The notes beneath the pieces were generated by a model. That model did not search any database. It was not told where the DNA came from and saw only the letters and a program-made list of their open reading frames with translations. 64,000 nucleotides of DNA from a virus. Its lineage: Duplodnaviria; Heunggongvirae; Uroviricota; Caudoviricetes. The stretch lies in the IMG/VR virus record IMGVR_UViG_3300021400_000025, positions 22,479 to 86,478 of that record; one strand, 5' to 3'. Within the stretch, counting starts at the first letter, position 1. The number at the start of each line of letters is the position of its first letter. A program made the position numbers and the translations under genes. This document shows, in pieces, positions 1,261 to 63,414 of this stretch.

Positions 1261-3345
1261 TCAGTAGTTGTTCTTGGAGAGGATGTTGATGTTCTTGTTC
1301 ACAATTCTGATTCTGCTCTTCATCTCCTCTTCTGTGTTGGTGTAGAGAACAGGATACATGAATGGTTGAAGCCCCATGTGCCCAGTCTTGATGAAGAGAT
1401 CGTCGCCTAGATCCACAAGGGTGGTGTTGGTGGTGAAGCATGCCATTGAGATTCCGTGCGTGTAGATGGGGTTCTCTCCTGCGCCTGGCTGATACACAGT
1501 GTATATGTCTGACACAGCAGGCACCTTCTCCATAATCATGTTCACTATGTCGTTGGTGTTGAATGGACCGAATCCCACCATTCCATTCCTCACATCGAAG
1601 AAGTAGGTCATCAGAGAGCATATGCGCTCCATGACTTCGTATGACGATATGGAGTAGTCGTCGTTTATCCTCACTTCAAGCCACGAAGCGTCATATCTGC
1701 TGTCCCCATCTTCTATTGTTGGAACCGTGGTCTTCTTGCTTTGGCGCAGAATCTGCCTGCCTTGCTCCTCTGGCACGCTGGAAATCTCGCATCTTATGGG
1801 GAGTGCTGGCATGAACACAGGTTCGTGGCACATGTCCTTCACATCCACCATCATGGACTTGCATCTTTGAACCAGTTGGTCGTAGTTGATGTCGTCTACG
1901 TCCCCGAAGTTGGTTATGTACCAGATGTAGACGTTGTTTGAATCCACTGCGTCTGAAAGGGAAGCCCCACCATATTTTGTGAACCTTGCTGGGTTGAGGT
2001 AGTATCTGGGGTTTTGTCCATGCCGTTCTGACATTCCCATCTGGACAAGCCATCTGTAGAATGTGGCGGTGTATTCCCAGTTGTTCATCACCTTCACAGA
2101 GTTGAACATCCCAGATATGGAGGGTTCGTTCATGATGAAGAACTCATAGTCCTCTTTTGTCACCAATCTGTTGTTCATTTTGAACCAGTGGGGGGCCCTC
2201 TCCCTCACTTGCTCCACCCCTTCCTCCTTCAAGGCCGATGTGGATGATGTCAAGACCCGACATTCAATCTCCTCCACCTTCTGCGCATCCGCACCGAACA
2301 TTCTGGCATATAGTTCTGTTGAGACGCCGAACATCGCCGGCCCATGCACGAACGCCAATTTCTCCTCGCTTGGCTGGACACCTCCCTGCATCCCTTGCGT
2401 TTCAAGGTAGAACACATACAACTGCGAATTGGGCGTCAGCTTCCTCGTGGTGATGCCATCCCCGAACTTGATTACCAGTTGCTTAATCTCATTCAGCTCC
2501 ACATTGAACACATTGCAGTCGGTTTCACCACGCCCATTGTAGAGGAAATTGTGTATCTGGTCAGTGTCGTTGACATTTGGAAGCCCCTTGAACAGACCCA
2601 TGTTCGTGGGGTGGAAGAAGTTCACGTCGGTGGATGTCCAATCCACTTCGTCTGGGTTGTCGGCCTTCATCTTCTCGACAACTTCAATTGCGAACACATG
2701 GGCTGTGCTGGCGTACTTCTGCTCGTCCATTTCGCTTCTCACCATTGGAAGGACAAAAGTCTCGAAGTCGGAGCCATTGGGGGTGAACACTGTCTGGTAT
2801 CTCTTCCACACCCCATTGTGAAGAACCAAATCATACGGCTTTCCCCGTTCCAGGTTCTTGGGGATGATGCAATCGCGCCATGTGTAGGGCGAGTACGAGT
2901 AGTATTTCCCATTGCTCGTCTGCACCATCGCGAAAGGGGGTATTTTGACGTCTGAATCCAAGTCCTCGTTGACCAAATCCCCAGCATCGTCTATTCTGAA
3001 CATGGCCGTGGATGGGGTTATGCCCTATGCGTTATACCCCAGAAGTTTCGCTATCCGCACTATGTTCTCATAGTATTGCGACTGCGAGAACATGGATTCC
3101 GACGCAGCATGGTTCAACTGGTATGTCAATGTCTGGTACATGGTCGCAACCAGATCAACAAGAATCGCTATGTTGGAGCCAGGATACACCTGGTCTCTCA
3201 CAGCAGGATCTTCAATCAACTTGCGTATAATCAAATCCCTCATCTGGTATGCGTTGAATGTCGCATACTTTATGGGAAAGTCCTGTGACAATGAAACATT
3301 TTCCTTGGAAAACCTCTTCTCGTCGTTGTAGTTGGATGATGCCAT
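1261..3345 (-). CDS. Baseplate wedge subunit, T4 gp6-like (694 aa, one in-frame TAG at 3025-3027)
   Basis: ORFs 3025..3399 and 1261..3003 are in frame across a TAG; YPGSNIAILVDLVA..ESMFSQSQYYENIVRIAKLLGY, IKFGDG and APHWFKMNNRLVTKEDYE match gp6-family motifs. Confidence 0.85.
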
Positions 3346-3365
3346 TTCTCTATTTCCTCTTGTGG

Positions 3366-3434
3366 TATTTACCATGATTTTTCCAAAGAAAAATCGCAAA
3401 AACCTCTCAGTTTTTGTCTTGTTTTTCGTAAATA
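3366..3434. promoter_or_regulatory. Divergent pair of late-promoter-like GTAAATA motifs
   Basis: TATTTAC 3366-3372 (minus, before gp6-like gene) and GTAAATA 3428-3434 (plus, before scaffold/capsid); resembles T4 late TATAAATA. Confidence 0.7.
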
Positions 3435-3469
3435 TATGTAGTGTTCAAGAAAAGAAAGTTGGTTCAAAG

Positions 3470-4516
3470 ATGAAGGTTTCGGAGACAACGCAGAAGATTT
3501 ACGATGGAGTATCAAGCATTCTCCAGACGCATGGGCAGAGTCTGACAAAGGCTCAGGTCTATGCAATAGAGAGCATGGTTGAAACCATTGAAGAGTCTGT
3601 AGAGAAAAGATGCCTTGAGACAACGCAGAAGATTCTCGCCAAGAAGGAAAGGTTGGTTGAAGAGGCTAGAATGGATGTGGGAGAAGATCAGCATGGTGTC
3701 TCCGAGGACATGTTGAAGAAGGTCGATTAGCTGGTGGAGAGCAGGATACAGAAGTTGAAGAAGGAGATGCCCCAGGTGATGGATTATGCGAGGATGAAGA
3801 AGCTGGAGAGTTGCGTTGAATCCATCAAGGAGTGCGTGGGCTACAACGCCGACGAACAGGTGGATCGCGTGGCGAAGGAGAGCGCGAAGATGCTCAAGAC
3901 CACCAAGGCTCTGGTTGAGACCCAGGCAAAGCAGATTTCTGAGAAGAGTGCTTCCCTTGTGGAGAGCAGAAAGTCCATAACGGAACTTAAGCAGCAGGTG
4001 AAGCAGATGCAGGCAAAGATAGAAGCGAAGGAAAAACAGATAGTTGAAAGCACGAAGAAGAATTCAGAACTTGTGAACCAGGTTCAGAACCTTCAGAAGA
4101 AAGTTGAAGAGAGCAGGAAGATTAACGAGACGATTGAGGAAAAACGGAAAAGCGAATCATTGAGATATTACTTGGAACAGAAGATAGCGAGCTATCCCAA
4201 GTACGAAGCATCTCTTCTCAGAAAGCATTTCCAGAACGCGAAGAGCAAGGCGGAGATTGACGAGAACTTCCAAAAGGCGTTGTCCATGGTGGCGGAGAAG
4301 AGGGACGCGATGAGGACAGTCCAGGCAATTCCAGTGGCGAAGGTGAACGAGGTTCCGGAGAAGAGCAAGACGATTTCAGGTGAAACTATTGTCAAAGAGA
4401 ATGGTGGTTTCAAGCAGATGCAGACCAAGGAGGTTGACGATTCGTTTGTTGAGGTTGACTTCGACAACGATACCATAAGCCCCTTGGACATGCAGAAGTG
4501 GATGGACCGGCTTTGA
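3470..4516 (+). CDS. Prohead core scaffold protein, gp22-like (348 aa, in-frame TAG at 3728-3730)
   Basis: KKVD*LVESRIQK joins two in-frame ORFs; long E/K coiled coil; directly upstream of major capsid gene. Confidence 0.75.
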
Positions 4517-4556
4517 CATACTTCACACCAAACAAACAACAAACAGGTAAACTAAC

Positions 4557-6179
4557 ATGTTTAGAACAAATTCAGATTACCAGAAGAAGCTGCTCAAGCG
4601 CTGGGCGCCGATTCTGGAGAAGGGCACGCCAATTGACAGCGTCGAGAAGAAGCTGATCGTTGCGCAGTGCCTTGAGAACACCCGCAAGGAGTTCTGCAAG
4701 AAGGGTCTCTTCACAGAGGCTGCTCCTACGGCTGTTGGCAACACGGTTGAACTCCGCAAGGACATGCCCGCCTATCAGAACCCAGTCGCCGGCAATGGCG
4801 TGTTGACGGCAAACGACTACATTCTCCCGAACGTGGTCATGCCTATGCTTCGCCGTATTTTCCCAACCCTCATGGCTCATGAGCTGGTTGGCGTCCAGGC
4901 GATGACCGGTCCTACGGGTCTTGTGATGGCTCTCCGCGCAGTTGCTGCCAACCCAGAGCGCGTGGGTCTTCCACAGAACTACGAATTCGGCTATGGCGAG
5001 AATGGCCGCATGAACCAGTCAAGGTTCACTGGCGAGTATGCCAAGAACACCAATGTTGATGTTGGAAGCGATGATTCCAAGCTGTTGAACAAGCTCTATG
5101 GCAAGGATCCTGATCTTGACAACATTGGCGCGTTCTTGAACGGCACCTATGGTTCCTACTCTGGCCGTGGCGTTCCTACAGGCGCTGGCGAGGGCTATGC
5201 CACAGGTGGTGGCTATGCTCAGGGTTGGGCTGACAATGGATATGCTGGTGGCAAGCCAGGTCCTTATGCCGAGGCGACACAGACGCCTCATCACTATGGT
5301 GAAGGTACTCCTGATCCAACCTTCGGCCACTGGAGGAACAACACGTATCCTCAGGCTACGCTGAAGTTCGAGAAGCGTTTCGTGGTTGCCGAGACCCGCA
5401 AGCTGGGTTCCGAGTGGACGCCAGAGGACGCTGAAGACCTTGAGGCAATGCAGGGCATCGACCTTGAGACCGAGTTGACGAACGTGATTTCCTATCAGTT
5501 GGGCGCAGAAATCGACCAGCAGATCAAGGAGAGCATGATTTACGCCGCTTGGGCTGATTCCAAGGTCATTGACGTGAGCCGCCTTGATGGTCTTGACCAG
5601 ATGGGCCGTATCGCCGCGATGTTGACCTTCGTGACCCGCGAGGCGAACGAGATCGCAATCAAGACCCGTCGTGGCGCAGGCAACTTCGTCCTCGCTTCCA
5701 CGACAGTCTGCTCCTGCCTCCAGCAGCTTGGCACGTCCAAGCTCGTCAGCGATGGCAAGACGATGCCTTCTGTCCCTGCTTCTGCAATTGGCGCAATGAC
5801 GAAGGAAGGTCTCATCAACGATGGCCGTCAGCTCCTCGTCCGCGACACCAACACCTTCGGTTCCTATGCTCTTGTTGGCTACAAGGGAACGCAGGCTGGT
5901 GACGCCGGCATCGTGTACTGCCCATACATCCCTGTGACCCTCTACAAGGCTGTCAAGCCCGAGAATGGTCTCAATGTGATTGGTGCCCGTACGCGCTATG
6001 GTCTGGTTGACAACCCATTCGATTCCAAGAACTACTACCAGCTCATCAAGTTCACTGGATTTGACACTGGTTACACACTTGGCACTGACAAGCGCACCTT
6101 CTTTGGTGATCCTATCAACTCTGATGGTTCTGAGTTCGCCGACAGCGCGTTCCAGCATCGTAGTGGTCTCATTGGCTAA
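4557..6179 (+). CDS. gp23: Major capsid protein, T4 gp23 family
   Basis: RWAPILE N-terminus, PMLRRIFPTLMAHELVGVQAMTGPTGLVMALR, ELTNVISYQLGAEID, YCPYIP, TRYGL motifs; strongly biased codon usage. Confidence 0.96.
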   Translation: MFRTNSDYQKKLLKRWAPILEKGTPIDSVEKKLIVAQCLENTRKEFCKKGLFTEAAPTAVGNTVELRKDMPAYQNPVAGNGVLTANDYILPNVVMPMLRRIFPTLMAHELVGVQAMTGPTGLVMALRAVAANPERVGLPQNYEFGYGENGRMNQSRFTGEYAKNTNVDVGSDDSKLLNKLYGKDPDLDNIGAFLNGTYGSYSGRGVPTGAGEGYATGGGYAQGWADNGYAGGKPGPYAEATQTPHHYGEGTPDPTFGHWRNNTYPQATLKFEKRFVVAETRKLGSEWTPEDAEDLEAMQGIDLETELTNVISYQLGAEIDQQIKESMIYAAWADSKVIDVSRLDGLDQMGRIAAMLTFVTREANEIAIKTRRGAGNFVLASTTVCSCLQQLGTSKLVSDGKTMPSVPASAIGAMTKEGLINDGRQLLVRDTNTFGSYALVGYKGTQAGDAGIVYCPYIPVTLYKAVKPENGLNVIGARTRYGLVDNPFDSKNYYQLIKFTGFDTGYTLGTDKRTFFGDPINSDGSEFADSAFQHRSGLIG

Positions 6180-8334: not shown

Positions 8335-9699
8335 TTATTTTATCTTCTCAGAATAGAAACCCGCTTTGAAGCCACATTCTCCTCCTGTGCCTGCTCCGGT
8401 TCTTGCTCCTACTGAGACCGAAATACCATTTGCTTGACATGAATCAAGAAGTCTTTTTCCTGCGATATATTTATCTCCCTTAATTTGGGACAATATAGCC
8501 ATTCTGCCCGAATCTCCACTATCAACCATAATTATTTTTTGATGGTTGTCTTTTACATAATAGTCAATGTAATATTTTGCAAAGAGATATACGAATATAA
8601 CTGCCCTTTCCCTATTCATTGATTCCAAATCGTTGTCTAGATTGACATTCATTTCGTCATCTTCAATTTTGTTCCTTGATGTTTTTGACATGGGTTTTGG
8701 CATGGTTCTTTCGTCCATTCCAATATACTTGCTTATTATTCTTTCAATCTCTTCCGTCTTTTTGCTTCCCTCTGGAAGAAATTGCATAAGTTGCTGGTAT
8801 GTTTTTGGATATGCCTTACCATTATCTCCACGCTTCATCAGCAATTGCTCAGCTTCCCCACAATTTTGTGGAATGAACCTTGATGTTATCACTCCACCAC
8901 TGCTTTTCACCTCAATGGAAGATTTGCCACTTTGGATGTCTCCCGCTTCGTCGGCAAGTTTGCAATCAGAAAATGTGAGAGCCAATGCCAATTCACCTTT
9001 TCCAACTGGTGCATTGTTCTTATAAAAGTTATTAAGTTTAGTGATTGCGTTGAATGCCCTAAATAGCTGATCCTTGTTGATTTTATTTTTTCCAACCTTG
9101 ATGTCATTGAATACTGTGTTAATTCTCATCAAATATACAACTTCCTTTGCTGGAATAATATCCATCAACTTTCTTGACTCACGAGAACCTATAAGAGCAG
9201 AAAAAGTCATGAGACTGCTACCTTCGTTTTTTGAAACAAGTTCAAGGAACAAGTCAGATGTCAGTTCAGGGGTAAGGTCGGTCCCGTTTTTGGATTTTTG
9301 TCCAAAGTCAATTTCTTTTAACTGTTGTGCAATTCGATCAAGATATTTCAGTCCCCCATCTTCCGACCCACCCAATTGCGTCAGTTGCTCTCCTAGTTCT
9401 TCAAGTTTCTTTGAGACATCTCCCTCAGGAACTCCAAGCAGTTTTCCAATTACCTATCCCTTGTTTTGAAAGTCCTTCCATGAATTAGTGTTTTTCAAGT
9501 TCTCAAATTTTCCTGATGTGTTATTCAATTTGGATTCATGAATGAATCCATTTCTATAAATTTGAACTAACTTGCATAAATCCCTATTGAATAGTTCTAT
9601 TTTTGGTGTTGTTTTCTCATTGACAATGTTAAGTGGATAGAATTTCACTTCTTGTTTCTTCTTATCGTCTATGTCAACCCATTTTATGTCCTTGGTCAT
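8335..9699 (-). CDS. Putative PD-(D/E)xK endonuclease (454 aa, in-frame TAG at 9454-9456), AT-rich
   Basis: ORFs 9454..9699 and 8335..9375 join in frame through TAG; GKGELALAL..AGDIQ..IEVKS motif; visibly more AT-rich than flanks. Confidence 0.55.
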
Positions 9700-9730: not shown

Positions 9731-9761
9731 TATTTACCATTGAGCATTGCAAATGTATAAT
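9731..9761. promoter_or_regulatory. Overlapping divergent promoters: late GTAAATA (minus) and sigma70 TTTACC-N17-TATAAT (plus)
   Basis: TATTTAC 9731-9737; TTTACC 9733-9738 and TATAAT 9756-9761. Confidence 0.6.
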
Positions 9762-9774: not shown

Positions 9775-10794
9775 ATGAACAAAGACTACTACAAGATATT
9801 GGGCGTTGAGAAGACTGCAACGGAGGATGAAATCAAAAAGGCCTACCGCAAGTTGGCCTTGAGATACCATCCAGATCACCAGCAAGGCAAGTCTGATGCT
9901 GAGAAGAAGGAAGCTGAAGACAAGTTCAAGGACATCAACGAGGCATACGAGGTCTTGTCCAATCCAGAGAAGAGGCAGCAGTACGACAATCCAAGTCCAT
10001 TCAGTGACTTTGGTGGTGGAGGAATGGGTGGTGGAACTGCACGGCAGTGGACCGACGAGAATGGCAACATGCATTTTGAGTTCAGTGGTGGGGAAATGCC
10101 GGGTGGATTTGGTTTTGGCAATCCCTTCATGGATCCTTTTGGCATGGGTGGTTTCGGCCCATTTGGGCGCAGAAGAAGAATGGATCCAAACGCCCCAAGA
10201 CCTGGCGAGTCAATGGCATTCACCTTGTCTGTTGGATTCAGGGAAGCCATAGATGGTTGCTCCAAGAAGGTGAAGTTGAACATAGAGGACAACTGTGGAT
10301 GCTTGAATGGATGCGACAAGTGCAACCATACTGGAAGGATCACCAAAACGATAACTCTGGAGGTGAGGGTTCCGAGTGGGTGTCCAGATGGTCAGAGGTT
10401 GAGGGTTGCTGGTCAGGGGAATCGTGGCTACAATGGCGGTCCGAATGGCGACATCTACTTCCAGATTGCCGTGGGCAACGACCCAGATGGGATTTTCGTC
10501 AGAGATGGCTTTGACTTGTTGGAGCAGATTGATGTTCCCTTCGAGATCTTCATATTGGGTGGAGAGATTGAATACCATACATTGACGGGGGTTGAAAAAT
10601 ACACTGTCCAGCCATTCACGAAGCCTGGGAAGTGGCTTGTGTTCAAGAACAAGGGAGTGCATGTGATGAACTCCATCAACTCAAATGGGGACTTGAAGGT
10701 GCTGCTTGAACCGAAAATCCCAGAAAGCCTTTCAAGCAAGGAACGTGAAATCCTTGAACAGTATCGGGAAGAACGTGCGAGAAATGGTAAATAA
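9775..10794 (+). CDS. dnaJ: DnaJ-family co-chaperone (class II-like, vestigial Zn finger)
   Basis: [14 protein letters not shown]-domain, G/F-rich linker, single [14 protein letters not shown] remnant, C-terminal substrate-binding domain. Confidence 0.93.
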
Positions 10795-10824: not shown

Positions 10825-11694
10825 ATGAAATGGCGAATCTACAAAGAAGATGTTGAAGAAGTGGACATCAAGAAGCTGCTCAAGATGAATGGCGTGACGA
10901 AATTTCCATCTGGAATGAAGTTTTCTGACACCAAGGCAGAGTGGGAAAAGCATCGGGGACATGCTGGAAAGAAGACCATCTACAATATGTGCGTTCAACT
11001 TGAGCATGCGGGTTGGAAGAGAGGTGATTGGACCACTGGTGGCATTCCAGATGGTTCCGCCGTGTCCAATTCTGAGAAATATACTTCTCCCGATGGCTAG
11101 ATAGTGATGTCATATTATGAATACTATGGGGCCACTGCCTATGACAACAGCTACTACATCACGTTCAAGTTGGCAGAAAGCCCAATGAAAGAGTCAAGCA
11201 GATTTGGCTTCAATGCTGGGGACGAAGTAAATCCAAAGGCTGAAGATAAGGCAATGGAAGTTCTTGCCAAGATGGAGCATGGAACTCCAACAGATGAAGA
11301 GTTTTACAAGACACCGTGCTTCAAGTTCCTTGATGTGAGATATGTTGAAAGCTGGGTTGAGTTTGACACTGTTGAGGGTTTGTGGTCAAGCAAGAATTGT
11401 GACTCCCGACTTGACGATGTTACTGACGAATTGCAACTCGCCAGCATGATGGTATTCCACAAGGACAATCTTCACATGGTGAACATTCCAACAAGATGGG
11501 TGTGGATATTCGGCGAAAATGCCGCTTGGGAAGATGTGTGCGAAGCCAGGATGCACTTCACTGGGGATGTTCCATTTGGCTACGGAGAAGAGGTCAAGAA
11601 TGAAATTCTTCAGGCTTTGCGTGGAAATGCCATTACCCACAGATGCTTGGAGAACATCATAACAAGTACGAAGAACAAATGGTACACGACTTGA
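10825..11694 (+). CDS. Hypothetical late protein (289 aa, in-frame TAG at 11098-11100)
   Basis: YTSPDG*IVMSYYEY joins two ORFs in frame; GTAAATA at 10787-10793 upstream. Confidence 0.65.
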
Positions 11695-14897: not shown

Positions 14898-15299
14898 ATG
14901 AACCCCTTGATGAAGGAGAACCAGATTCTCAGGATGATTTCAGAATCCTCTCGCAATCTGGACGATGACAACAATCTGTACTGGATTGATTTCAAATATC
15001 CCATCAGAAAGTCATTTAACCTTCCCATCCCATACAGGAAGTCCCTTTTGCGTCATCCAGATGACGGTTGGAGCATCTTCAGGAATAATGACGCAGAAGA
15101 AGTTGTGGACAGGGCAACGCAGATGATGTTTGACCTCTCCATGCACCATTACATTTCCAATGTCCTGCGTTATGGCTCGACCCTTGAAGTCAGGTTCAAG
15201 GAATGCCGTGGTGGAAGGATGCCGAACTTTGGAATAAGGACCGTGAGGAAAATATCCAAAATCATCGAGAAAGGTTCAATTCCAACGCATCCCTGGTAA
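14898..15299 (+). CDS. Hypothetical protein
   Basis: ATG right after upstream TGA; ends TAA. Confidence 0.6.
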   Translation: MNPLMKENQILRMISESSRNLDDDNNLYWIDFKYPIRKSFNLPIPYRKSLLRHPDDGWSIFRNNDAEEVVDRATQMMFDLSMHHYISNVLRYGSTLEVRFKECRGGRMPNFGIRTVRKISKIIEKGSIPTHPW

Positions 15300-15324
15300 A
15301 TACTTGAAATAAGAGGCAAATGAA

Positions 15325-25512: not shown

Positions 25513-25514
25513 TT

Positions 25515-45400: not shown

Positions 45401-45848
45401 CAAGGTTCCAGAGTCAATCCCAGGGGACATCAAGCGCGATGTCAAGAGGGTGATAACCAAGTTGAACGCGGAAATCCGTGGGACAAAGCAGTTCAACTTC
45501 TTGAAGGAATGTGGCGTTGAGAAGCCACAGCTTGACCATCTTGAGTTCTTGACGCACTACAAGACAGCGCAGGTCAACGAGACATTGAGCGAGACGACCT
45601 ACAAGTTCGTGCTGAAGAAGAACGATAGCATGATGAGCAGGATGTTCTTCTCCAACATGAAGGAGAAATTGTTCAGGTATCTTGGGACATTCGCAACCAA
45701 GTACAACATGGAATGTGGATGCGAGGCAACGCCAACTGCAGTGACAATCAGCTTCATGAGAAGCGATCTTGGAAATCCTGGATACGATCTTGAGACAATG
45801 GTGGACGCAGACGTTGCGCTTCCAGAGACAACAGCGGACCAGATTTGA
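42468..45848 (+). CDS. Large multi-segment late protein (1126 aa, TAGs at 43650 and 43692)
   Basis: Two ORFs join in frame; G/N/A- and G/D-rich low-complexity linkers; GTAAATA at 42426-42432; several xES motifs. Confidence 0.75.
44213..44465 (+). repeat. Coding low-complexity GGDDAGG(DPF)AGG repeats
   Basis: Repeated GATGATGCTGGTGGTGG-like units inside CDS 42468..45848. Confidence 0.8.
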
Positions 45849-48314: not shown

Positions 48315-48342
48315 CTTGTTGTTCCATGCCCTTTTCAATCCA

Positions 48343-48415
48343 ATTATACACCAATGTTCTCAAAATGTAAATTCAATCAACCCCCATTGACATTGAACGC
48401 GGAAAATGGTATAAT
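48343..48415. promoter_or_regulatory. Divergent sigma70-type promoters
   Basis: Minus TTTACA(48366-71)-N17-TATAAT(48343-48); plus TTGACA(48387-92)-N17-TATAAT(48410-15) with TGn. Confidence 0.8.
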
Positions 48416-48443: not shown

Positions 48444-49391
48444 ATGAACTACAACAATTCCATATCTGACCAGGTGAAGTTGTCAAGTGTCCTTGACGAG
48501 TTGATACTTGACGGCACAGATTCCAACATCATTGTGGAGTTCTTGAAGCAACATGAGCAGGACATTCCCGACATATACAAGCATTCCGCGTTCGTGTTTG
48601 ACTTGTATGATGTGTGCGCACACCCCAGAATGAAGATTGATGGGTTTTTGGTCAAGCAGATAAGGCATTTGCCCCCTATGAGCAGATATTTCGCAACCAC
48701 TTCTCTGTTCATGTTGTGCCTCAACACTGGAACCAACGATCATGCCATGACGATGTTGAAGGACGAGTTCAAGGCGAACAGGGGGTTTTACAATGGCCTT
48801 GACAGGATGCGCAGATTCACGGTCCGAGGGGAAGAACCTGTCCTCCTGGGATGTGTCAATTTGGTGGAGTTCTTGGATGGGATGGATGATCTTCGCGACA
48901 TGGAGATGTTTGTGTCCAATTCATATCTTGCGATGTCTGCGTTCCAGGCGTCTGCTTTCGTGCGATTGACCCCCGCCACGCAGTATTATCTATTGAAGGC
49001 TTGTATGTCGTTTACGCGCCAAAACCATGGGCATGAGGAGATGGATGTGGTCGGCCAGCTTGCGAAGAACCTTGTGAAGCAGTTGGCTGTGCTTGGGCAT
49101 CTTGACTTGCTTGCGTGGGTCTTGAATGTCTTGGGAGGTGCTTCGCGGGAACTCGCTTCATCGTTCTTGCTTGATGTTCCAAAATCCATAGTGGATCTTC
49201 TCGGAACATCTTTTGAGGAGGTTGTCTTTGAATCCAACATGCAGGAGACGCAGTACGACCCAATGGACTTGTTCCTGTACATATACCTTGCGAGGGGAGA
49301 TTTGTTCAAGGGCATGCAGGAGAACAAGGACTTGCTTGAGTTCTTCAACCTTCCATTCAACACAGACGAGTTGAAGTGGGGAGACGAGTGA
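48444..49391 (+). CDS. Hypothetical alpha-helical protein
   Basis: 315 aa, behind consensus promoter, typical codon usage. Confidence 0.7.
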   Translation: MNYNNSISDQVKLSSVLDELILDGTDSNIIVEFLKQHEQDIPDIYKHSAFVFDLYDVCAHPRMKIDGFLVKQIRHLPPMSRYFATTSLFMLCLNTGTNDHAMTMLKDEFKANRGFYNGLDRMRRFTVRGEEPVLLGCVNLVEFLDGMDDLRDMEMFVSNSYLAMSAFQASAFVRLTPATQYYLLKACMSFTRQNHGHEEMDVVGQLAKNLVKQLAVLGHLDLLAWVLNVLGGASRELASSFLLDVPKSIVDLLGTSFEEVVFESNMQETQYDPMDLFLYIYLARGDLFKGMQENKDLLEFFNLPFNTDELKWGDE

Positions 49392-49436
49392 TGCGCCGGA
49401 TTTTTCAACAACAGCAAAGGAGCAAACAGTAAGCAT

Positions 49437-50513
49437 ATGAAGAAGATAATGATGATTGCGGCCATCTGCGCCGTGGTGGTGGGCATGGCCATCTGCCTTG
49501 TTGTCCTCCACAAGCCAAGCAACCAGAAGACGACCAAGTTGTATGTCTATACATGGGCAGACTACATAGACCCCGACATAGTGGCGGAGTTCGAGAAACG
49601 ACATTCTTGCGAGGTTGTCATAGACACCTTCGACTCCAACGAGTCCATGTACGCCAAGCTGAAGGCCGGCGCGATTGGCTATGACATAATCACCCCCACC
49701 GAATACATCATGCCCCTGCTTCTCGGCGACAACCACAACAACAATCTTCTTGAGAGCATGGACATGAGCCGTCTGCCAAATGTTGAGCGCAACATCGATC
49801 GCGACTTGACCTCCAAGTGGAGCTGCGAGTGGAATGTCCCCTATTGCTTCAGTTGCACCGGCATCCTCTGGAGGAAGGACAAGATTCCAGAGGGGTTGAA
49901 GTTCCTTGATTGGAGGGATTTGTTCGATCCCAGACTGAAGAAAAGCGTGTGCATCATGGACGACATTCGGGAGTTGCTGGGCATTGCGCTCAAGGTGAAT
50001 GGGCATTCTGTGAACTCAAGGAGCAAAGATGAAATAGACAAGGCCGGCGCTCTGGCGAAGGAATGGCGCAATCGTTCGCGCAAGATGGACAACGAGGCAT
50101 ATAGGACAGGAGTGCCGGCGGGGGAGTTCGCCGCAGCGATGGCATACAATTCCGACGCAATCATGATTCTCGCGGCAGAGGGCGGCGAGAACTTTGGATA
50201 CACAATCCCCACCAATGGCACAATCTCCAGCATGGATGTCATGTGCGTGATGAAGACCTCCCGCAACAAGGATTTGGCGTTCAAGTTCATAGACAACCTA
50301 TATGACAAGACGAACGCTGTGCGCAACTCCGAATACAATTGCGCCCCAATGCCAGTGAAGGGGCTGTTTGAATCGCTGCCGGACAAATACAAGTCCCTCC
50401 CTCTGATGAAGATTGACAAGGCATTCAAGGCGCAATGCGAGGACATAGAGGATGTTGGGGAAGACTTGGAGAAGTATTCGTCCGCATGGGACAAGGTGAA
50501 GTCCGAAAATTGA
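49437..50513 (+). CDS. potD: Spermidine/putrescine-binding extracellular solute-binding protein (PotD/PotF-like)
   Basis: N-terminal signal/anchor; LYVYTWADYIDP..EF..VVIDTFDSNESMYAKL..YDII.P, PYCFSCTGI, W.DLFDP.LK..I.MMDDIRE motifs. Confidence 0.9.
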   Translation: MKKIMMIAAICAVVVGMAICLVVLHKPSNQKTTKLYVYTWADYIDPDIVAEFEKRHSCEVVIDTFDSNESMYAKLKAGAIGYDIITPTEYIMPLLLGDNHNNNLLESMDMSRLPNVERNIDRDLTSKWSCEWNVPYCFSCTGILWRKDKIPEGLKFLDWRDLFDPRLKKSVCIMDDIRELLGIALKVNGHSVNSRSKDEIDKAGALAKEWRNRSRKMDNEAYRTGVPAGEFAAAMAYNSDAIMILAAEGGENFGYTIPTNGTISSMDVMCVMKTSRNKDLAFKFIDNLYDKTNAVRNSEYNCAPMPVKGLFESLPDKYKSLPLMKIDKAFKAQCEDIEDVGEDLEKYSSAWDKVKSEN

Positions 50514-50523
50514 TCCGGGGGTA

Positions 50524-50552
50524 TTGACATCCAACCCAGATTATGATATACT
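50524..50552 (+). promoter_or_regulatory. Strong sigma70-type early promoter
   Basis: TTGACA-N17-TATACT with TGn; TATGATATACTA identical to the 12749 promoter. Confidence 0.8.
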
Positions 50553-50563
50553 ATTGGCGTTGA

Positions 50564-50612
50564 AGAACAACAAGAGTTGTTGAGAACAACAAGAGTTGTT
50601 GAGAACAACAAG
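50564..50612 (+). repeat. 19-bp tandem repeat (~2.6 copies) with internal palindrome in a 5' leader
   Basis: AGAACAACAAGAGTTGTTG x2 + AGAACAACAAG; CAACAA/TTGTTG inverted arms. Confidence 0.85.
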
Positions 50613-50617
50613 GAGAA

Positions 50618-50947
50618 ATGAATGTGGCAAATAATGTGAAAAGATGGTTCGTTGAAACCGTGGCAGCCGAAAGTTGGGAGGGCAAGCCCCTCGGCCCCAA
50701 CATCACGCTGGACTCCCTGGAGATGACGTCCCTGGATGAGGCGCGTGGCTTCGTTCAGAAGAAGATTGGCGAGTTTGCGTCAAACCCCACTGTTAGGCTT
50801 GAGTGGATTGATTGGGCGGCTAAGAAGGTGCAAATCAATTTCAACTACAGCATCGGGGAAATTGACAAGGTTCAGCAGACCTATGTCATGTACATCGTGG
50901 AAGTTGACGAAGATGGCAAATTGACCCATGTTGACATTGGAGACTGA
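50618..50947 (+). CDS. Hypothetical early protein
   Basis: AGGAG RBS after repeat. Confidence 0.7.
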   Translation: MNVANNVKRWFVETVAAESWEGKPLGPNITLDSLEMTSLDEARGFVQKKIGEFASNPTVRLEWIDWAAKKVQINFNYSIGEIDKVQQTYVMYIVEVDEDGKLTHVDIGD

Positions 50948-50948
50948 A

Positions 50949-51443
50949 ATGACTGAATGCCGAGACAAGAACGACCCTGAGTTCAACTCCATCAAGGACG
51001 TTGACTACATGAAGTTCCTGGACTTCATGAAGGACAAGGATTTGGAGAACCTTCGTCTCCCCCTCAACAACCCGGAGGCGTATCAGTATCTTCGTTGGCT
51101 CAATAAGTTCTTTGTGGACGACAACAACCATCTGAACTACCTTCTCAACATCTGGGATGCGCAACTCTCTGACAAGCCCATCTGCCCCCCAACCCCCCGT
51201 GAACAAGCCATCTTCAACTCGCGTCGCATCGTGGAGATTGCCGACGACAAGGAGCTTGATCCCAAGGACAAGGGCATCTACATCGACTCCAACGCCGAGA
51301 TGATTAGGGACGCATATCAGTATTGGTGCTACCCCATCTGGATTGCAACTGGTCTCGCGGGATGCGTCATGAAGTGGGGGACGTTCGAGGACAATCTGAA
51401 GCCGGGGGACGATTACATCACCTGGGAGGAGTGGAACTCCTGA
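50949..51443 (+). CDS. Hypothetical early protein
   Basis: ATG just after upstream TGA; typical codons. Confidence 0.7.
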   Translation: MTECRDKNDPEFNSIKDVDYMKFLDFMKDKDLENLRLPLNNPEAYQYLRWLNKFFVDDNNHLNYLLNIWDAQLSDKPICPPTPREQAIFNSRRIVEIADDKELDPKDKGIYIDSNAEMIRDAYQYWCYPIWIATGLAGCVMKWGTFEDNLKPGDDYITWEEWNS

Positions 51444-51463
51444 GAGGATTGGTGGGAGGCAAA

Positions 51464-51871
51464 GTGGTTTTTGAACATGAAATGCGGAATGGTGGACTTG
51501 TGTTCAACCTCACTTGCGATGAACGCAACAAGGTTGAAAATGCAAGGTTCATGCAGAAGCCGGCCATAATCAAGGCGGTTGATCACATGAACTTCTCAAG
51601 AAGTCTTCTTCGGCTAAAGAACATTGTCTTTCTTGATGGGGATTTCTGCAAGGAAGAGATTGACTATGTTTTTCCCAACGACAAGGACAAGTTCGCGTCC
51701 GACATGATGGACATATCAATGTCCTATGCGATTCTGTGGCTTGGTTCTGACATTCTGGGGTTCAACGATATTGTGGTTGCGAAGACCGCGCACAACACCA
51801 CGAACATCGACGCCGAAGTGATTGGGGCGTTTCTTGACAAGATTGGGGAGAACAACAATGGAAACTCTTGA
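51464..51871 (+). CDS. 'NIDA' paralog family member 1
   Basis: GGAGG + GTG; TTNIDAEVI motif. Confidence 0.65.
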   Translation: MVFEHEMRNGGLVFNLTCDERNKVENARFMQKPAIIKAVDHMNFSRSLLRLKNIVFLDGDFCKEEIDYVFPNDKDKFASDMMDISMSYAILWLGSDILGFNDIVVAKTAHNTTNIDAEVIGAFLDKIGENNNGNS

Positions 51872-52241
51872 AACAGGTGGATGGGACTCGTACATATGTT
51901 CTGATGGGCAACTGAATATTCTGGGGAACGACAACATGGACATGGAGGTTGTGCGCAGGAACATTGATCTTGCTGCGCTCAATTGCGAGCATTTGACGAT
52001 AAGGGACATCATCTTCAAGGATGGATCTCCAACCATCTGCAAGACAATGTGCTTTTTCTACATAGATAGGAGAAAGATGGTTGAAAGTGTTGTGTCGACC
52101 CTTGCTGTGTTTTCCCTCACCCACAGGCTCATGTTCGCAACCTATAATGGAACGATTTACGTAACTGAATCCGAAGACCACCAAACGAACATCGACGCTG
52201 AGTTTTTGGACTACATCTTGAACCTGAAGTGGAGACGTTGA
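51858..52241 (+). CDS. 'NIDA' paralog family member 2
   Basis: ESEDHQTNIDAEFL motif. Confidence 0.7.
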   Translation: METLETGGWDSYICSDGQLNILGNDNMDMEVVRRNIDLAALNCEHLTIRDIIFKDGSPTICKTMCFFYIDRRKMVESVVSTLAVFSLTHRLMFATYNGTIYVTESEDHQTNIDAEFLDYILNLKWRR

Positions 52242-52242
52242 A

Positions 52243-52740
52243 ATGGATGCCATGTCAAAACTGCAACTGAATGTTCCTTCCACAATGCTGCCAATGGTGA
52301 GGCGCGTTTTTCCAACAATGATTCCAGATTTTCCTCTGGAACTTCCATCAGATTTTGCGAGTCAAGTCGAAAAATGGACTTTCCTCTCAAGGAAACGGCT
52401 CAAGAGGCAAATCAAGAACTTTGGCACCCATTGGAAGCACAGCATTTCAATCAACAAACTTGTCTGCGAAGAGGGGAAGCCGATGAAGTTCACTTCGAGG
52501 ACATTTACCCTTTTCCACGAGGACAGCATTGAGAAGTTCATGGTTGAACTCGCCAACCTTGCCGACCTGCATGGCATAGTGAAGCTGCGCCAGGGGGAGA
52601 TATGGGTGAAGCAGATTTCAAGCCCAGACCAATTGAACATAGACGTCGGCATAATCGAGAGGTTCGTTGAGAGGATGAAGGAGCAGGTATATGTGAAATT
52701 CGCCAAAGCCGACTTCACATTGAAATTGGAGGTGGAATGA
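52243..52740 (+). CDS. 'NIDA' paralog family member 3 (divergent)
   Basis: DQLNIDVGII motif. Confidence 0.65.
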   Translation: MDAMSKLQLNVPSTMLPMVRRVFPTMIPDFPLELPSDFASQVEKWTFLSRKRLKRQIKNFGTHWKHSISINKLVCEEGKPMKFTSRTFTLFHEDSIEKFMVELANLADLHGIVKLRQGEIWVKQISSPDQLNIDVGIIERFVERMKEQVYVKFAKADFTLKLEVE

Positions 52741-53159
52741 CATGTGGAGAACCATGGAGATTGCGGGAAATGACAATGAAGTTTTCAGAACTTGACTTTA
52801 GTTTGTTCAAACAACCCCCAATGGAGAAGAAGGAACTGGTTGATTTTCTCAACCATACCACTGCGTTGGTTGGGTCCAGGTGTGTCGTGCTTGAGTGCCT
52901 TTGCGAAAATGAAACGAAGAACATTCTGGATTTCTACCTTCCGAGCGAATACGACAATCTATTGGAGGCACTTGCCTCCCTCTCGTTGTCATATTCAATA
53001 GTCTATTTTCGGGTCAACCTTGGGGATGGCACAATCAAGAACCACAAGGAGCCAGGTTTTGCCATAATCACCCTTGTGGAGCAGGACGACCATTCCACAA
53101 ACATTGACGCTGATGTCATCCGGTCAATAATGGAACAGTATGACTGGCTTATGAAGTAA
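52737..53159 (+). CDS. 'NIDA' paralog family member 4
   Basis: DDHSTNIDADVI motif. Confidence 0.7.
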   Translation: MTCGEPWRLREMTMKFSELDFSLFKQPPMEKKELVDFLNHTTALVGSRCVVLECLCENETKNILDFYLPSEYDNLLEALASLSLSYSIVYFRVNLGDGTIKNHKEPGFAIITLVEQDDHSTNIDADVIRSIMEQYDWLMK

Positions 53160-53172
53160 GGTAGCACATAAT

Positions 53173-53565
53173 ATGTTGAAAATCATGGAGAACATCAACA
53201 GGTTAACTTTTGTCCCCATCACTCTGTCCACCGAGATTCTTGACATTGAGAGCAAGAATGGAATGTCTGTGGAAGTCATGATGAGACGCATGTCAAAATG
53301 GTCGTATGACAAGTCTGTTCTCATGGTGTACGACATCCAGTTCAAGAATGGACATCCATTTGGCATACGTGTGTTTGGATTCACCGACTACCATAACAGG
53401 GACATGGACGAATTTCTGGAGTTCATGCATCAGATGTCATTCACGCACAAGGTCATGTATGTGGAGGAGAATGGCTATGTTTTCATCACCGAGTCAAACG
53501 ATGGGCAGACCAACATAGATGCTGACTTGATAGATGCGATGTTGAATGCGTACCATTGCCATTGA
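53173..53565 (+). CDS. 'NIDA' paralog family member 5
   Basis: ESNDGQTNIDADLIDAMLNAY. Confidence 0.75.
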   Translation: MLKIMENINRLTFVPITLSTEILDIESKNGMSVEVMMRRMSKWSYDKSVLMVYDIQFKNGHPFGIRVFGFTDYHNRDMDEFLEFMHQMSFTHKVMYVEENGYVFITESNDGQTNIDADLIDAMLNAYHCH

Positions 53566-53580
53566 AGAGATTGGGAGAAT

Positions 53581-53952
53581 ATGATGGAACACGAGTTTAC
53601 CAAATGGAAAGCACTTACACCCTACGAAAAGAATGTGTTGGCGCGCAGAGATGGCATGTCCTACGATGAGATAATGGACATCGCATCCAATTGGAATTAT
53701 TCACGCACAATACTCGTTGTATGCGACATACGATTCAAGGATTCTCGCCCAAGCTTTAGGCGATATATTGGATTTACTGATTATAGTCGAAGAAGCGAAG
53801 ATGAGTTCGTGGAGTTCATGTCAGACATCTCGCTGACGCACAGAGTGATGTTTGTGGAGGGTAGTGGACGCTTGTGGCTCACTGAATCCAGAGATAATCA
53901 GACCAACATAGACGCAGATTTGATAACCGCCATGCTCAACGCATACAAGTGA
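53581..53952 (+). CDS. 'NIDA' paralog family member 6
   Basis: ESRDNQTNIDADLITAMLNAY. Confidence 0.75.
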   Translation: MMEHEFTKWKALTPYEKNVLARRDGMSYDEIMDIASNWNYSRTILVVCDIRFKDSRPSFRRYIGFTDYSRRSEDEFVEFMSDISLTHRVMFVEGSGRLWLTESRDNQTNIDADLITAMLNAYK

Positions 53953-53994: not shown

Positions 53995-54053
53995 ATGTGG
54001 AAGATTGGCGTAAATAATCAACATACCCCCAAACTGGGTATAATAATTGGAAT

Positions 54054-55985: not shown

Positions 55986-56016
55986 TGGTAAATAGTTGAA
56001 AGCAACATGAGGTAAA

Positions 56017-56475
56017 ATGACAATGAAATGGAAATTAATCAATGAGAGTACTGGGGCATGGGTTCCGCATTTTGAAGAGGGGCAGTATGTGATTTGCCGC
56101 AATTCGTCATTGGAGGGTTATGGGATTAGGGAAGGCGACAAATTAAAAGCTGAGAAGCTGAGGAAAAACAAATGGGGTTATTGGTTTGTTAAATTTCAAG
56201 GAATACGTAAATGGTGTCCCGGTTGTGATTTTGACCCAGTGGACGAGGAAACAATCGAGGCTGCAATTGCGTTTATTGAAAATGGGGGAAAGTGTGGATA
56301 TCAATATGGGTTTACCTACAAAGGTGCTGAAATAAAACCAATGGACACAAAAGAGGCATTAAAAAAGATTCAAAGTGGTAATTGGACATTTGGAATTGGA
56401 TTTTACAATCTGTATTGGTCAAGAGATAAGCGAACGCTGGTATTCAACGAACTTTCTGAAAATGACATGTTTTGA
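56017..56475 (+). CDS. AT-rich hypothetical protein between topoisomerase genes (MKWKLINES tag)
   Basis: GTAAATA at 55988-55994; AT-rich codons (TTA, AAA, AAT). Confidence 0.65.
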   Translation: MTMKWKLINESTGAWVPHFEEGQYVICRNSSLEGYGIREGDKLKAEKLRKNKWGYWFVKFQGIRKWCPGCDFDPVDEETIEAAIAFIENGGKCGYQYGFTYKGAEIKPMDTKEALKKIQSGNWTFGIGFYNLYWSRDKRTLVFNELSENDMF

Positions 56476-57881: not shown

Positions 57882-57917
57882 TGTAAATATTAAATATGAG
57901 GATATGGTAAATGGTTC

Positions 57918-58400
57918 ATGGACAAGGCAAAAAGTTTCAAGAAATGGGGATTTGACATAGGAGAGAAAGATATGGACAAGAACATTGGAACGTCAGAAGA
58001 CGACGAAGACATCAAGACGAGATACGAAAACTTTTTGTTCATAGGACTTGGAAGAAATCCAGTTTTTGACACCGAGATATTGGTGAAGGTGGCAAAGACA
58101 GACAAAGACAAGGCATTGCAGGCATTGAAGCAAATAGGCTGCAGATCTGTGAAGATTCTGAATACTGACAACCTCAATTCCGCCAGATTGTCCAGCCAGA
58201 GCATTCAGGACATATTGCAACGAAGGACACTTGAACTTGACGATGTTGAGTTTAATTCCAAATACGGCCCATTCGATGAAGTGGAGACGATTGACCTTGC
58301 GAATTTGAAAGTAAATGAAAGTGTGGTTCTTGAAAAAGCACATCGCCCGGCAATAACAGTGACAATTCTTCCAGATGGAAGACGCCGCTTCAGAACTTGA
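57918..58400 (+). CDS. Hypothetical protein
   Basis: 160 aa; GTAAATA at 57883-57889. Confidence 0.6.
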   Translation: MDKAKSFKKWGFDIGEKDMDKNIGTSEDDEDIKTRYENFLFIGLGRNPVFDTEILVKVAKTDKDKALQALKQIGCRSVKILNTDNLNSARLSSQSIQDILQRRTLELDDVEFNSKYGPFDEVETIDLANLKVNESVVLEKAHRPAITVTILPDGRRRFRT

Positions 58401-60780: not shown

Positions 60781-61563
60781 ATGAAGAGTGTGATAGAGGT
60801 GTATGCTGAAATGGCGAAGCAGAATCCGCCATGGAAGGCTGATGAAGAGGCTGCGTTCATCCGCAGTTGCATGACACGCACTGGCAAGTGGAAGTCCAAG
60901 GCGATGAAGGATAGGTTTGTCAACGAGGCTGTGAAGCACAACCTCGCGATGGTGTTCAAGATGATGAGCCGGTATTCGTTCAAGAAGGACAATGAAGACA
61001 CTTTCCAGAGGGCTGTTGTTGCTCTTGCCGAGGCGTTGAAGAAATACGACCCCTCTTCTGGGAACAAGATTTCAACTTGGATTCAGCAGCCCATCATCTG
61101 GGCAATCAGGCAGACCCAGCACACCTACTACAAGGGGAACGATATCCATGACCAGATTGCGGCGTTGAACCGCCGCTACAACCTCAAGATGAGCGTGGTG
61201 TCTGTGGATGCCACGATTGGGAACAATGACGACAACGAAAGCAATGACACCCTTGGCAGTCTGATTTCATCCAGGAACGTGAGTGCAGACTACATTACCA
61301 TCCGTGGAATCAAAAGCGCTGAGGATGAGAGCCGCGAGAGGGAAATCAAATCTGGGGTGGATGACCTTGTTGTGGAACTTCCCAAGATTCTGAACAAGAA
61401 GGAGGTTCGTGTTGTCAAGTATCTTCTCAAGGGCTTGTCCATGTCTGATATTTCCGTGAAGTTGAAGGTGACGAAGATGCGCATCTCCCAGATTTCGGCA
61501 AAGGCGTTTGAGAAGATTCGCAATTCCAAGTATGGGAGCAGGTTGAAGGGACTTCTGGCATGA
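60781..61563 (+). CDS. Phage-encoded sigma-70-family RNA polymerase sigma factor (group 3-like)
   Basis: HNLAMVFKMM (2.1), KYDPSSGNKISTWI..IIWAI (2.3/2.4), LNKKEVRVV..SMSDIS..VTKMRISQISAKAFEKIR (region 4 HTH). Confidence 0.88.
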   Translation: MKSVIEVYAEMAKQNPPWKADEEAAFIRSCMTRTGKWKSKAMKDRFVNEAVKHNLAMVFKMMSRYSFKKDNEDTFQRAVVALAEALKKYDPSSGNKISTWIQQPIIWAIRQTQHTYYKGNDIHDQIAALNRRYNLKMSVVSVDATIGNNDDNESNDTLGSLISSRNVSADYITIRGIKSAEDESREREIKSGVDDLVVELPKILNKKEVRVVKYLLKGLSMSDISVKLKVTKMRISQISAKAFEKIRNSKYGSRLKGLLA

Positions 61564-62414: not shown

Positions 62415-62456
62415 ATAACCATCATGAAAATTGAAGAAATTGATGTGAAAGGCCCC

Positions 62457-62485
62457 TTGACTTTTCAATTTTGATGTGCTATAAT
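62457..62485 (+). promoter_or_regulatory. Sigma70-type promoter, possibly leaderless mRNA
   Basis: TTGACT-N17-TATAAT with TGn; ATG at 62492 lies where a TSS is expected. Confidence 0.65.
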
Positions 62486-62491
62486 ATGGGT

Positions 62492-62884
62492 ATGTTTGAT
62501 GTTCCTACATATCTCTATCACAGAACCACTGTGAAAGCCTATGTCCAGATAATGGCAGATGGCAAGATTCGCCATACCGGAACCCCCGCTTCCAACTGGA
62601 GGTTCAAGAGGCTGAAGTTTGGCAACATATTTGGGATTGGCGAGGACAAGTGGAAATGCGTGTTTCTTGCTGACGATCCAAAGCTCACTTCCGGTTTGGT
62701 GTGGGCAGGAGACATTGTTCTCAAGATTGACACGACCAAACTCAGAAAGACGAAGTTCGACTATGATGAAAACGTGTCCATTCGGGAATATGGGAGAAGC
62801 TACATCTACAAGGAAGACATCCCCGTCTCGGAGATAGTGAGTGTCATAACAGACAAATGGTCATATCCAGGAATTGGTAAATAA
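62492..62884 (+). CDS. ADP-ribosyltransferase/Tpt1-like fold protein
   Basis: YLYHRTT..IMADGKI..VFLAD..IVLKID..YIYKEDIP pattern. Confidence 0.5.
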   Translation: MFDVPTYLYHRTTVKAYVQIMADGKIRHTGTPASNWRFKRLKFGNIFGIGEDKWKCVFLADDPKLTSGLVWAGDIVLKIDTTKLRKTKFDYDENVSIREYGRSYIYKEDIPVSEIVSVITDKWSYPGIGK

Positions 62885-62889
62885 CCATC

Positions 62890-63414
62890 ATGAAGATTGA
62901 AGTATACAACTTGAACAAGGCGTTGAAGGTTGCCGAGAAGTGTCCTGGATGCAACCTTCTGTCCATTCGGGACTCCTACGCCGGAGACGATGACACTGAC
63001 GAGAAACATGCTTGCCTTGACAGGCGCATTGCGAGGAACAACATCAACGCCAAGGTTGTCCACTTTGACGACATAGATCCATACCGCTTCTATCACGACA
63101 TGGAGCATCCCATAATCAAGGCGAAGTTTGGTGATGGGACAAGGCAACCAATATTCTTCAACAAGGAGATTGCGTCCGAGATTGTGAATTGGGTCATGGA
63201 GATATGGAAGAAAGACCACAACGTCACCATCAAAATCCACTGCTGGGCTGGACGTTCAAGGTCTCAAGCTGTGGCATACTGGCTCAACATGTACTTCAAT
63301 CTGATTCTGGACAGGAACATCGAGGACTATGTGGCGAACAACGCATTGAATGTCCATGAGAAAATCCACTTCAACTGCGAGGTTCTGAGGGTGTTCACCG
63401 AGATGTTTGGCTGA
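62890..63414 (+). CDS. Protein-tyrosine/dual-specificity phosphatase-like protein
   Basis: IHCWAGRSRS HCx5R P-loop; FDDID WPD-loop-like; GTAAATA at 62877-62883. Confidence 0.85.
   Translation: MKIEVYNLNKALKVAEKCPGCNLLSIRDSYAGDDDTDEKHACLDRRIARNNINAKVVHFDDIDPYRFYHDMEHPIIKAKFGDGTRQPIFFNKEIASEIVNWVMEIWKKDHNVTIKIHCWAGRSRSQAVAYWLNMYFNLILDRNIEDYVANNALNVHEKIHFNCEVLRVFTEMFG

Follow-up and report, generated by a model that had tools for sequence, protein, structure and literature searches.

TAG codons apparently read as glutamine follow a late-type promoter class in a 418-kb rumen phage

In a 64,000-nt stretch of DNA from a tailed phage (Caudoviricetes; hereafter the window, bases 22,479-86,478 of the 418,068-bp IMG/VR record IMGVR_UViG_3300021400_000025), genes interrupted by in-frame TAG codons lie next to genes that carry none, raising the question of what determines where this phage uses TAG as a sense codon and whether this placement serves to time its genes. 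The initial annotation of the window had found TAG only in operons behind a GTAAATA motif, which it read as a late promoter, and had proposed that early genes are readable with the standard code of the host whereas virion assembly is blocked until a suppressor system is active. As a whole, the data are best explained, with a probability that we put at about 0.7, by TAG being decoded as glutamine (Gln) through one tRNA with the anticodon CUA (tRNA(CUA)), by a split of TAG usage between promoter classes and by a late programme gated by suppression.

The phage genome is a single contig with direct terminal repeats, a completeness rating of 100% and a GC content of ~47%. Its DNA is present in sequencing runs from sheep and cattle gut samples, and a search of the GenBank phage collection revealed no close annotated relative. 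Genes were called with our own caller, which accepts only TAA and TGA as stops, scores hexamer coding potential and refines start codons; it returned 473 genes genome-wide, 102 of which (~22%) carry an in-frame TAG, with 255 TAGs in total. ARAGORN found 33 tRNA genes, a transfer-messenger RNA (tmRNA) and one tRNA with anticodon CUA in the genome, and a tRNA scan of the window found none inside it. Coordinates below are those of the window unless said to be of the genome.

De novo k-mer enrichment upstream of genes yielded two words, GTAAATA and GTATAAT. GTAAATA occurs in 117 copies, 98 of them intergenic, intergenic DNA making up 11.6% of the genome; its extended consensus is ataaT(G/T)GTAAATA, no -35 or other upstream element is conserved with it and divergent pairs are frequent. 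The second word belongs to a sigma70-type promoter with the consensus TTTACA-N17-TATAAT, whose intergenic sites divide into 56 with a -35 element (5-6 of 6 positions) and 58 with only tGTATAATTGaa. Late transcription in T4 depends on the sigma factor gp55, which acts at TATAAATA in the -10 region with no -35 and is activated by gp33 and the gp45 sliding clamp. Because GTAAATA resembles TATAAATA, lacks a -35 and occurs in a phage that encodes a gp55-type sigma, it can reasonably be read as a variant of the T4 late promoter. The late motif was scored as the exact GTAAATA core only, since some one-mismatch motifs (e.g. GTAAATT) are the reverse complement of an opposite-strand -35 TTTACA; the one-mismatch motifs beside divergent sigma70-type promoters in the window (48360-48375; 47265-48338) were discarded as false positives of this kind, TGTAAA being the reverse complement of TTTACA. 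Promoter labels were inherited along genes across gaps of <400 nt.

Reading through TAG fuses table-11 fragments into long frames, as in the 2,339-aa frame with 7 TAGs at 34568-41587. Coding potential is strong both 5' and 3' of the in-frame TAGs, and the frames are interrupted by TAG alone, never by TAA or TGA. Family matches run across the TAG positions of the baseplate wedge, terminase and ADP-ribosyltransferase genes. In the large terminase, the residue at TAG 418 is Q in 18 of 19 close homologues and in 49 of ~100 distant ones, where it is the commonest residue, and at TAG 121 it is Q in all 20 aligned distant homologues. In the gp55-like gene and in the giant gene at 34568-41587, TAG columns align with CAG or CAA of relatives (giant-gene codons 9, 12 and 47). 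The stops of called genes are TGA (~79%) and TAA (~21%), with few candidate terminal TAGs. Together, these comparisons indicate that TAG is decoded as Gln in this phage and has been largely given up as a terminator. Genuine stops at the TAGs, with the long frames being chained small genes, pseudogenes or assembly errors, would fit the many open reading frames obtained when the region is read under table 11, but are hardly credible given the coding potential on both sides, the Gln columns and crossing family matches, the encoded tRNA(CUA), the breaking of frames by TAG alone and the unaltered TAG at 19320-19322 (the first of gene 17931-19661) in a contig from an RNA library.

The capsid gene, too, is covered by RNA-library contigs, from two studies, as are a few fragments; the contigs show that this gene is present in RNA libraries, and no timing, strand or transcript ends are readable from such assembled contigs. 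The large terminase gene (genome 341,390-343,846) carries 12 TAGs, 11 of them within its first 235 codons, and has a weak match to an intein splicing domain at residues 212-280. Database annotation of its close homologues begins only at about residue 235, presumably because they were cut at TAGs.

Genome-wide, TAG usage followed promoter class. Among first genes behind GTAAATA, 53 of 83 contain TAG (3.70 per 1000 codons; TAG/(TAG+CAA+CAG) of 0.093), compared with 4 of 85 first genes behind sigma70-type promoters (0.21 per 1000 codons; ratio 0.008), and genes with both promoter types are early-like, at 0.57-0.62 TAG per 1000 codons. At the level of transcription units, TAG is found in 57/83 late versus 14/85 sigma70-type units (p=5e-12; permutation p<5e-5). 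The genome-wide ratio by promoter class that the initial annotation had suggested as a check gave 0.086 for late units versus 0.025 for sigma70-type units, so the contrast survives control for Gln content; in units headed by (T/G)GTAAATA, sense TAG makes up ~9% of Gln codons. Within the sigma70-type class, the 27,334 codons of units with -35 and -10 include 4 TAGs, of which none is convincing as an internal sense codon, and -10-only units fall in between (23 TAGs among 16,652 codons), 12 of their TAGs being in the terminase gene, which directly follows a gene with a -10-only promoter within a longer late run. GTAAATA lies upstream in the same-strand run for 94 of the 102 TAG genes. The contrast was replicated in a related 414-kb phage (G001), of which 400 kb were run through the same pipeline and whose proteins are 65-80% identical: 3.93 TAGs per 1000 codons in the late class, 0.23 in the sigma70-type class and 0.78 with both (p=2e-24). 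Such related genomes do not count as independent samples.

The late-labelled TAG genes include those for a baseplate wedge, two tail tube proteins, a head maturation protease, tape-measure-like and tail-lysin-like proteins, a C92 amidase and the terminase. Long sigma70-type genes with no internal TAG encode DNA polymerase, DnaB, Dda, SbcC, the clamp loader, methyltransferases, GroEL, NAMPT and an HNH endonuclease. Recoding is thus biased to structural and lysis genes, and replication genes fit the standard code.

Within the window, the initial annotation held up well on its central observation and less well on completeness. Its nine GTAAATA coordinates are all exact, and seven more sites (15296, 30340, 31937, 54010, 55988, 57883 and 62877), all before TAG-free genes, have to be added. 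The 13 TAG genes inside the window, and a 14th running off its end (63415-65952, minus strand), all belong to GTAAATA-headed units. Late-labelled genes number 33, with 26 TAGs among their 12,809 codons, and the 36 others have no TAG among 7,943 codons, where ~16 would be expected (P(0)=1e-7; gene-level Fisher p=5e-6). Its gene names were likewise borne out (uvsW-type helicase, DnaJ, DNA polymerase, methyltransferases, MetK, clamp loader, PotD-like protein, topoisomerase II subunits and sigma factor). It had placed both topoisomerase subunits among TAG-free genes behind sigma70-type promoters; they are TAG-free and such promoters are present, but the late motif is present there too. The features of the window are as follows, a late core being an exact GTAAATA and those marked as added being the seven further sites.

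1261-3345 (-): gene for a baseplate wedge subunit; the family match spans its TAG at codon 107
3366-3372 (-): late core, 20 nt upstream of the baseplate wedge gene start
3428-3434 (+): late core heading the unit of 3470-4516 and the capsid gene
3470-4516 (+): 348-aa gene, co-oriented with and upstream of the capsid gene; TAG at codon 87
4557-6179 (+): major head protein gene, no TAG, with the RNA-library contigs from two studies
8335-9699 (-): 454-aa gene; TAG at codon 82
9731-9737 (-): late core upstream of gene 8335-9699
10787-10793 (+): late core upstream of gene 10825-11694
10825-11694 (+): 289-aa gene; TAG at codon 92
15296-15302 (+): late core (added) before a TAG-free 83-aa gene
17931-19661 (-): 576-aa gene; TAG at codons 114 and 498
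19696-19702 (-): late core, minus arm of a divergent pair
19729-19735 (+): late core, plus arm of this pair, heading the run 19772-25174
19772-20959 (+): 395-aa phage-tail-repeat protein gene; TAG at codons 145 and 385
20978-22474 (+): 498-aa gene; TAG at codons 171, 418 and 482
22957-24186 (+): 409-aa gene; TAG at codons 144 and 203
24321-24587 (+): small gene, a weak call; TAG 4 codons from its end, which may be its stop
25216-25222 (+): late core upstream of 25231-26396
25488-26396 (+): 302-aa gene; TAG at codon 207
27433-27438 (+): TATAAT of the sigma70-type promoter (-35 TTTACC) that precedes the DNA polymerase gene 27456-30329, which is TAG-free
30340-30346 (+): late core (added) before TAG-free 30381-31604 (ferritin-like)
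31937-31943 (+): late core (added) before TAG-free 32023-32850
34552-34558 (+): late core followed after 9 nt by the giant gene's ATG; conserved in the relative G002
34568-41587 (+): giant 2339-aa gene; 7 TAGs at codons 9, 12, 208, 231, 1479, 1536 and 1879
41589-42461 (+): peptidase-like gene; TAG at codon 98
42426-42432 (+): late core within the 3' end of the peptidase gene, upstream of 42468-45848
42468-45848 (+): 1126-aa gene; TAG at codons 395 and 409
48387-48415 (+): perfect TTGACA-N17-TATAAT promoter at the head of unit 48444-53952 (PotD-like protein, small paralogues), which has no TAG
54010-54016 (+): late core (added) ahead of the gene for the large subunit of topoisomerase II, with a sigma70-type promoter on either side
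55988-55994 (+): late core (added) before 56023-56475 and the second topoisomerase II subunit gene
57883-57889 (+): late core (added) before 57918-58400 and two methyltransferase genes
60781-61563 (+): TAG-free gene for a phage factor of the sigma70 family (regions 2 and 4), with a TTGACA/TATAAT promoter
62877-62883 (+): late core (added), 6 nt before the ATG of TAG-free 62890-63414
63415-64000 (-): 3' part of an 845-aa gene (full extent 63415-65952); TAG at codon 70 and the late promoter beyond the window end

The promoter of the uvsW-type helicase gene is an imperfect sigma70-type one, TTTACC-N17-TATACT. The sigma70-like factor of the phage was considered as the reader of -10-only promoters, and this found no support, region 4 being retained.

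Outside the window, the restriction of TAG to late-promoter operons does not extend to the whole genome, where the genes for the gp55-like sigma, an ADP-ribosyltransferase and a glycosyltransferase contain TAG but either lack a late motif or have a sigma70-type -10 element of their own, the gp55-like gene being the most telling exception. A third case in a sigma70-type unit, besides the two transferase genes, is a frame joining an AAA_28 (kinase-like) and a NADAR domain (genome 196,606-197,826), whose single TAG stands exactly between the domains and may be either a stop between two genes or a site of read-through fusion when suppression is on.

Alternatively, genetic code 15 could apply genome-wide at all times, and early genes could be TAG-free only because of their composition, their codon bias, a low content of Gln or their small size; early genes are indeed shorter on average, and TAG is a minor Gln codon everywhere. 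We consider this very unlikely, since the contrast stays when counted per Gln codon and is present in every gene-length bin up to 800 aa. The ends of early genes argue in the same direction. Of the 8 TAGs in -35/-10 units of G001, 6 are no more than 20 codons away from the end of their gene (p=3e-5). In both genomes, the SbcC-like gene (genome 333,662-335,581; G001 93,918-95,846) reads ...IVRD-TAG followed by 7-8 poorly conserved codons and TGA, and in the present genome GAAGGAG and the ATG of the next gene come directly after the TAG, which, standing directly before the ribosome-binding site of that gene, would therefore act as a stop. From its sequence context, this TAG looks like a conserved terminator with a back-up stop. 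A few genes of -35/-10 units thus seem to end in TAG and therefore fit the standard code. The early genes of the present genome have no overall 3' excess of TAG, the pattern being limited to a handful of cases, and TAG as a common early-gene stop was accordingly rejected, the significant result being that of the -35/-10 units in G001.

The tRNA(CUA) gene lies at genome 268,611-268,687 on the minus strand (77 nt) and was found both by ARAGORN and by the Rfam tRNA model (33.2 bits; cut-off 29). It forms a unit of its own in the order terminator, GTATAATTG promoter, tRNA, terminator, each terminator being a hairpin with a T-run, and the tRNA is preceded by ttttttGTATAATTGAATGTGACGA. In a 434-kb relative, tRNA(CUA) stands behind an identical GTATAATTGAATGTGACGA string. 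As the tRNA has its own sigma70-type promoter, suppression would not be driven by the late promoter. When run on the first 400 kb of G001, ARAGORN returned no tRNA(CUA). The tRNA(CUA) of G002 (L057:1369-1458), with which the promoter string is shared, was called with a length of 90 nt, which points to an insert or to a long variable arm. Descent of the suppressor from the phage's own tRNA-Gln found no support, the identity being only 55%.

The gp55-type sigma gene (genome 323,001-323,642, minus strand) matches phrog_234 (E=2e-19) and, over residues 37-140, T4 gp55 (PDB 7d7c_F; E=3.9e-6). It has its own GTATAATTG element, a -10-only sigma70-type promoter, ~95 nt upstream. Its product carries an N-terminal extension of ~31 residues absent from T4 gp55, and extension and ATG are conserved in five related phages; a search with the alignment as query for more distant gp55 loci returned the same five. 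Each of the six genes has 1-3 TAGs at codons 24-33 and no alternative conserved start. In one relative, TAG is found at two core positions also, where the others have Gln. In the extensions of the six phages 11 of ~20 Gln codons are TAG versus ~2 of 36 in the rest of the gene, counts made by eye on related sequences and so not a strict test. Within the 5' UTR of the gp55-like gene, between GTATAATTG and the ATG, an GGTAAATAC late-type motif lies on the opposite strand (genome 323,695-323,710). It is invariant in all six related phages and points back through the sigma gene's own promoter, so that it could direct antisense transcription or interference once late transcription starts.

The sequence of events that we propose would begin with the expression of TAG-free genes and of the suppressor tRNA by host RNA polymerase. 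tRNA(CUA) would then accumulate, and no full-length late sigma would be made until suppression prevails over release factor 1 of the host; after the late sigma would come the proteins of the virion, of packaging and of cell-wall degradation, likewise needing suppression. As both late sigma and late genes would need suppression, recoding would license the late programme at two levels, those of sigma synthesis and of late-gene translation. That the code change stands upstream of the late switch, such that full-length late sigma, and hence every GTAAATA promoter, needs tRNA(CUA) to outcompete release factor 1, is a tentative proposal with the odds somewhat against it. If true, a translational checkpoint would drive the cascade, from -35/-10 promoters to -10-only promoters (tRNA and sigma mRNA) and then to late promoters.

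The same map of TAGs is predicted by a passive alternative, in which TAG is a neutral synonym of CAG wherever translation follows tRNA abundance, is purged from earlier genes and forms a partition that regulates nothing. The initial annotation had likened two TAGs within the first 12 codons of the giant gene to a gate. Both TAGs, at codons 9 and 12, stand behind an ATG conserved in two relatives, and the start and the two Gln residues are conserved; here both are TAG, in one relative only codon 9 and in the other only codon 12, and the remaining TAG sites of the gene are CAG or a different residue in relatives. As a general property of late genes, the gate was rejected: the apparent enrichment in the first 100 codons arose because genes had been selected for having TAG, and the distribution over all late-labelled genes is flat (chi-square p=0.88). 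The even spread of TAG along late genes and its exchange with CAG at homologous sites between relatives are the behaviour of an ordinary synonymous codon rather than of a placed regulatory site, and to the passive alternative can also be credited that dual-promoter genes are TAG-poor and that the absence of TAG from the capsid gene, correctly noticed at the outset, is within chance (P=0.17 at the late-gene rate). Against it stand the three giant-gene orthologues, all of which have retained one or more TAGs among their first 12 codons, and above all the sigma extension, in which TAG is far commoner among Gln codons than in the rest of the gene or than the ~9% of late genes; this TAG cluster is the only feature by which we disfavour it. 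We regard the passive alternative as the less likely reading, and outside the sigma extension TAG is, judging from these alignments, an ordinary synonymous codon of late genes.

Besides the spread and exchange of TAG just described, several points weigh against a suppression-gated late programme. The designation 'late' draws on the T4-like motif, the gp55 homologue and gene functions; gene calls, start codons and transcription-unit assignment come from a heuristic pipeline of our own that ignores terminators; and the ADP-ribosyltransferase (TAG 137) and glycosyltransferase genes are solid exceptions in sigma70-type units. As the suppressor tRNA and the TAG-free genes have the same promoter type, any delay would have to stem from accumulation of the tRNA, and a search of the genome for release-factor and glutaminyl-tRNA synthetase genes found none. 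What stands of the early-standard, late-recoded scheme is thus the partition by promoter class, replicated in G001; the expectations that late transcription switches suppression on and that a general gate exists do not.

The T4 late system and the present one have in common a gp55 homologue and an A/T-rich octamer without -35 before head, tail and packaging genes, often in divergent pairs. They differ in the core, which is (T/G)GTAAATA here and not TATAAATA, in the TAG-bearing extension of the gp55-like protein and in that about a quarter of the late genes here start 4-12 nt past the motif, implying leaderless mRNAs. A clamp loader gene is present; a search for the gp45 clamp with PF09116 and PF02916 gave no match in the genome, PF02916 being silent in control genomes as well. 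Behind either promoter class, the ATG follows the -10-like element at 4-12 nt in about one gene in four, with no Shine-Dalgarno sequence; none lies at 12-16 nt, and a second mode at 20-40 nt has a Shine-Dalgarno sequence. This spacing suggests many leaderless mRNAs in the phage, a count that is partly circular because the start picker gave a bonus to leaderless starts. The giant-gene mRNA, with its late core 9 nt before the ATG, is for that reason probably leaderless.

The early-standard, late-recoded model and the bias to structural and lysis genes have been published (Borges et al. 10.1101/2021.08.26.457843; Peters et al. 2022 PMC9523058), and the present phage is a clear new example of it. 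The word 'promoter' is absent from the main text of both papers, and a literature search pairing late promoter or gp55 with recoding found no paper linking either to recoding. With the code-15 gut phages (Lak megaphages, crAss-like phages, Garnet and Amethyst) this phage shares TAG as Gln, a suppressor tRNA(CUA), the concentration in structural and lysis genes, replication genes that fit the standard code, a minority of recoded genes (~22% here) and the proposed scheme of early genes read in the host code and late genes awaiting the change of code. It differs from them in that its partition follows two sequence-defined promoter classes, its own late sigma gene is recoded, its GC content of 47% is not low and no code-change module of release factor or aminoacyl-tRNA synthetase was found. 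In TGA-recoded Jade phages, a recoded lysis cassette is immediately preceded by a 'code change module' of suppressor tRNA, TrpRS and RF1 in standard code (Borges et al. 10.1101/2021.08.26.457843). Here, in contrast, the suppressor is a single monocistronic tRNA without synthetase or release factor, it does not lie beside a lysis cassette, and the dependent step includes the late sigma factor.

Whereas the published model rests on maps of gene function, the split in this phage is readable from the DNA itself: two promoter words predict whether a gene may carry TAG, with a ~15-fold contrast in two genomes, which offers a practical rule for annotators of mixed-code megaphages. It also supplies defined parts for testing the model, namely a late promoter, a gp55-type sigma that would need suppression, a self-contained suppressor tRNA unit and TAG-ending early genes with a back-up stop.

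Several smaller observations accompany these results. The TAG-free host-like auxiliary genes of the window encode a full-length DnaJ (9775-10794), a ferritin-like protein behind a late motif (30636-31604), a divergent SAM synthetase (33458-34549) and a PotD-like solute-binding protein (49437-50513). The composite word TGTATAATTGTAAATAG, a sigma70-type -10 joined to the late core with no spacer, occurs at genome positions 78, 5563, 223149, 231477, 268545 and 313444, one copy lying directly 3' of the suppressor tRNA. The tmRNA (tag GNDYSMAA; genome 238,260-238,595) lies within an array of 32 tRNAs (231,500-242,500) with many sigma70-type promoters, and the presence of this ribosome-rescue RNA is of note in a genome with a leaky stop codon.

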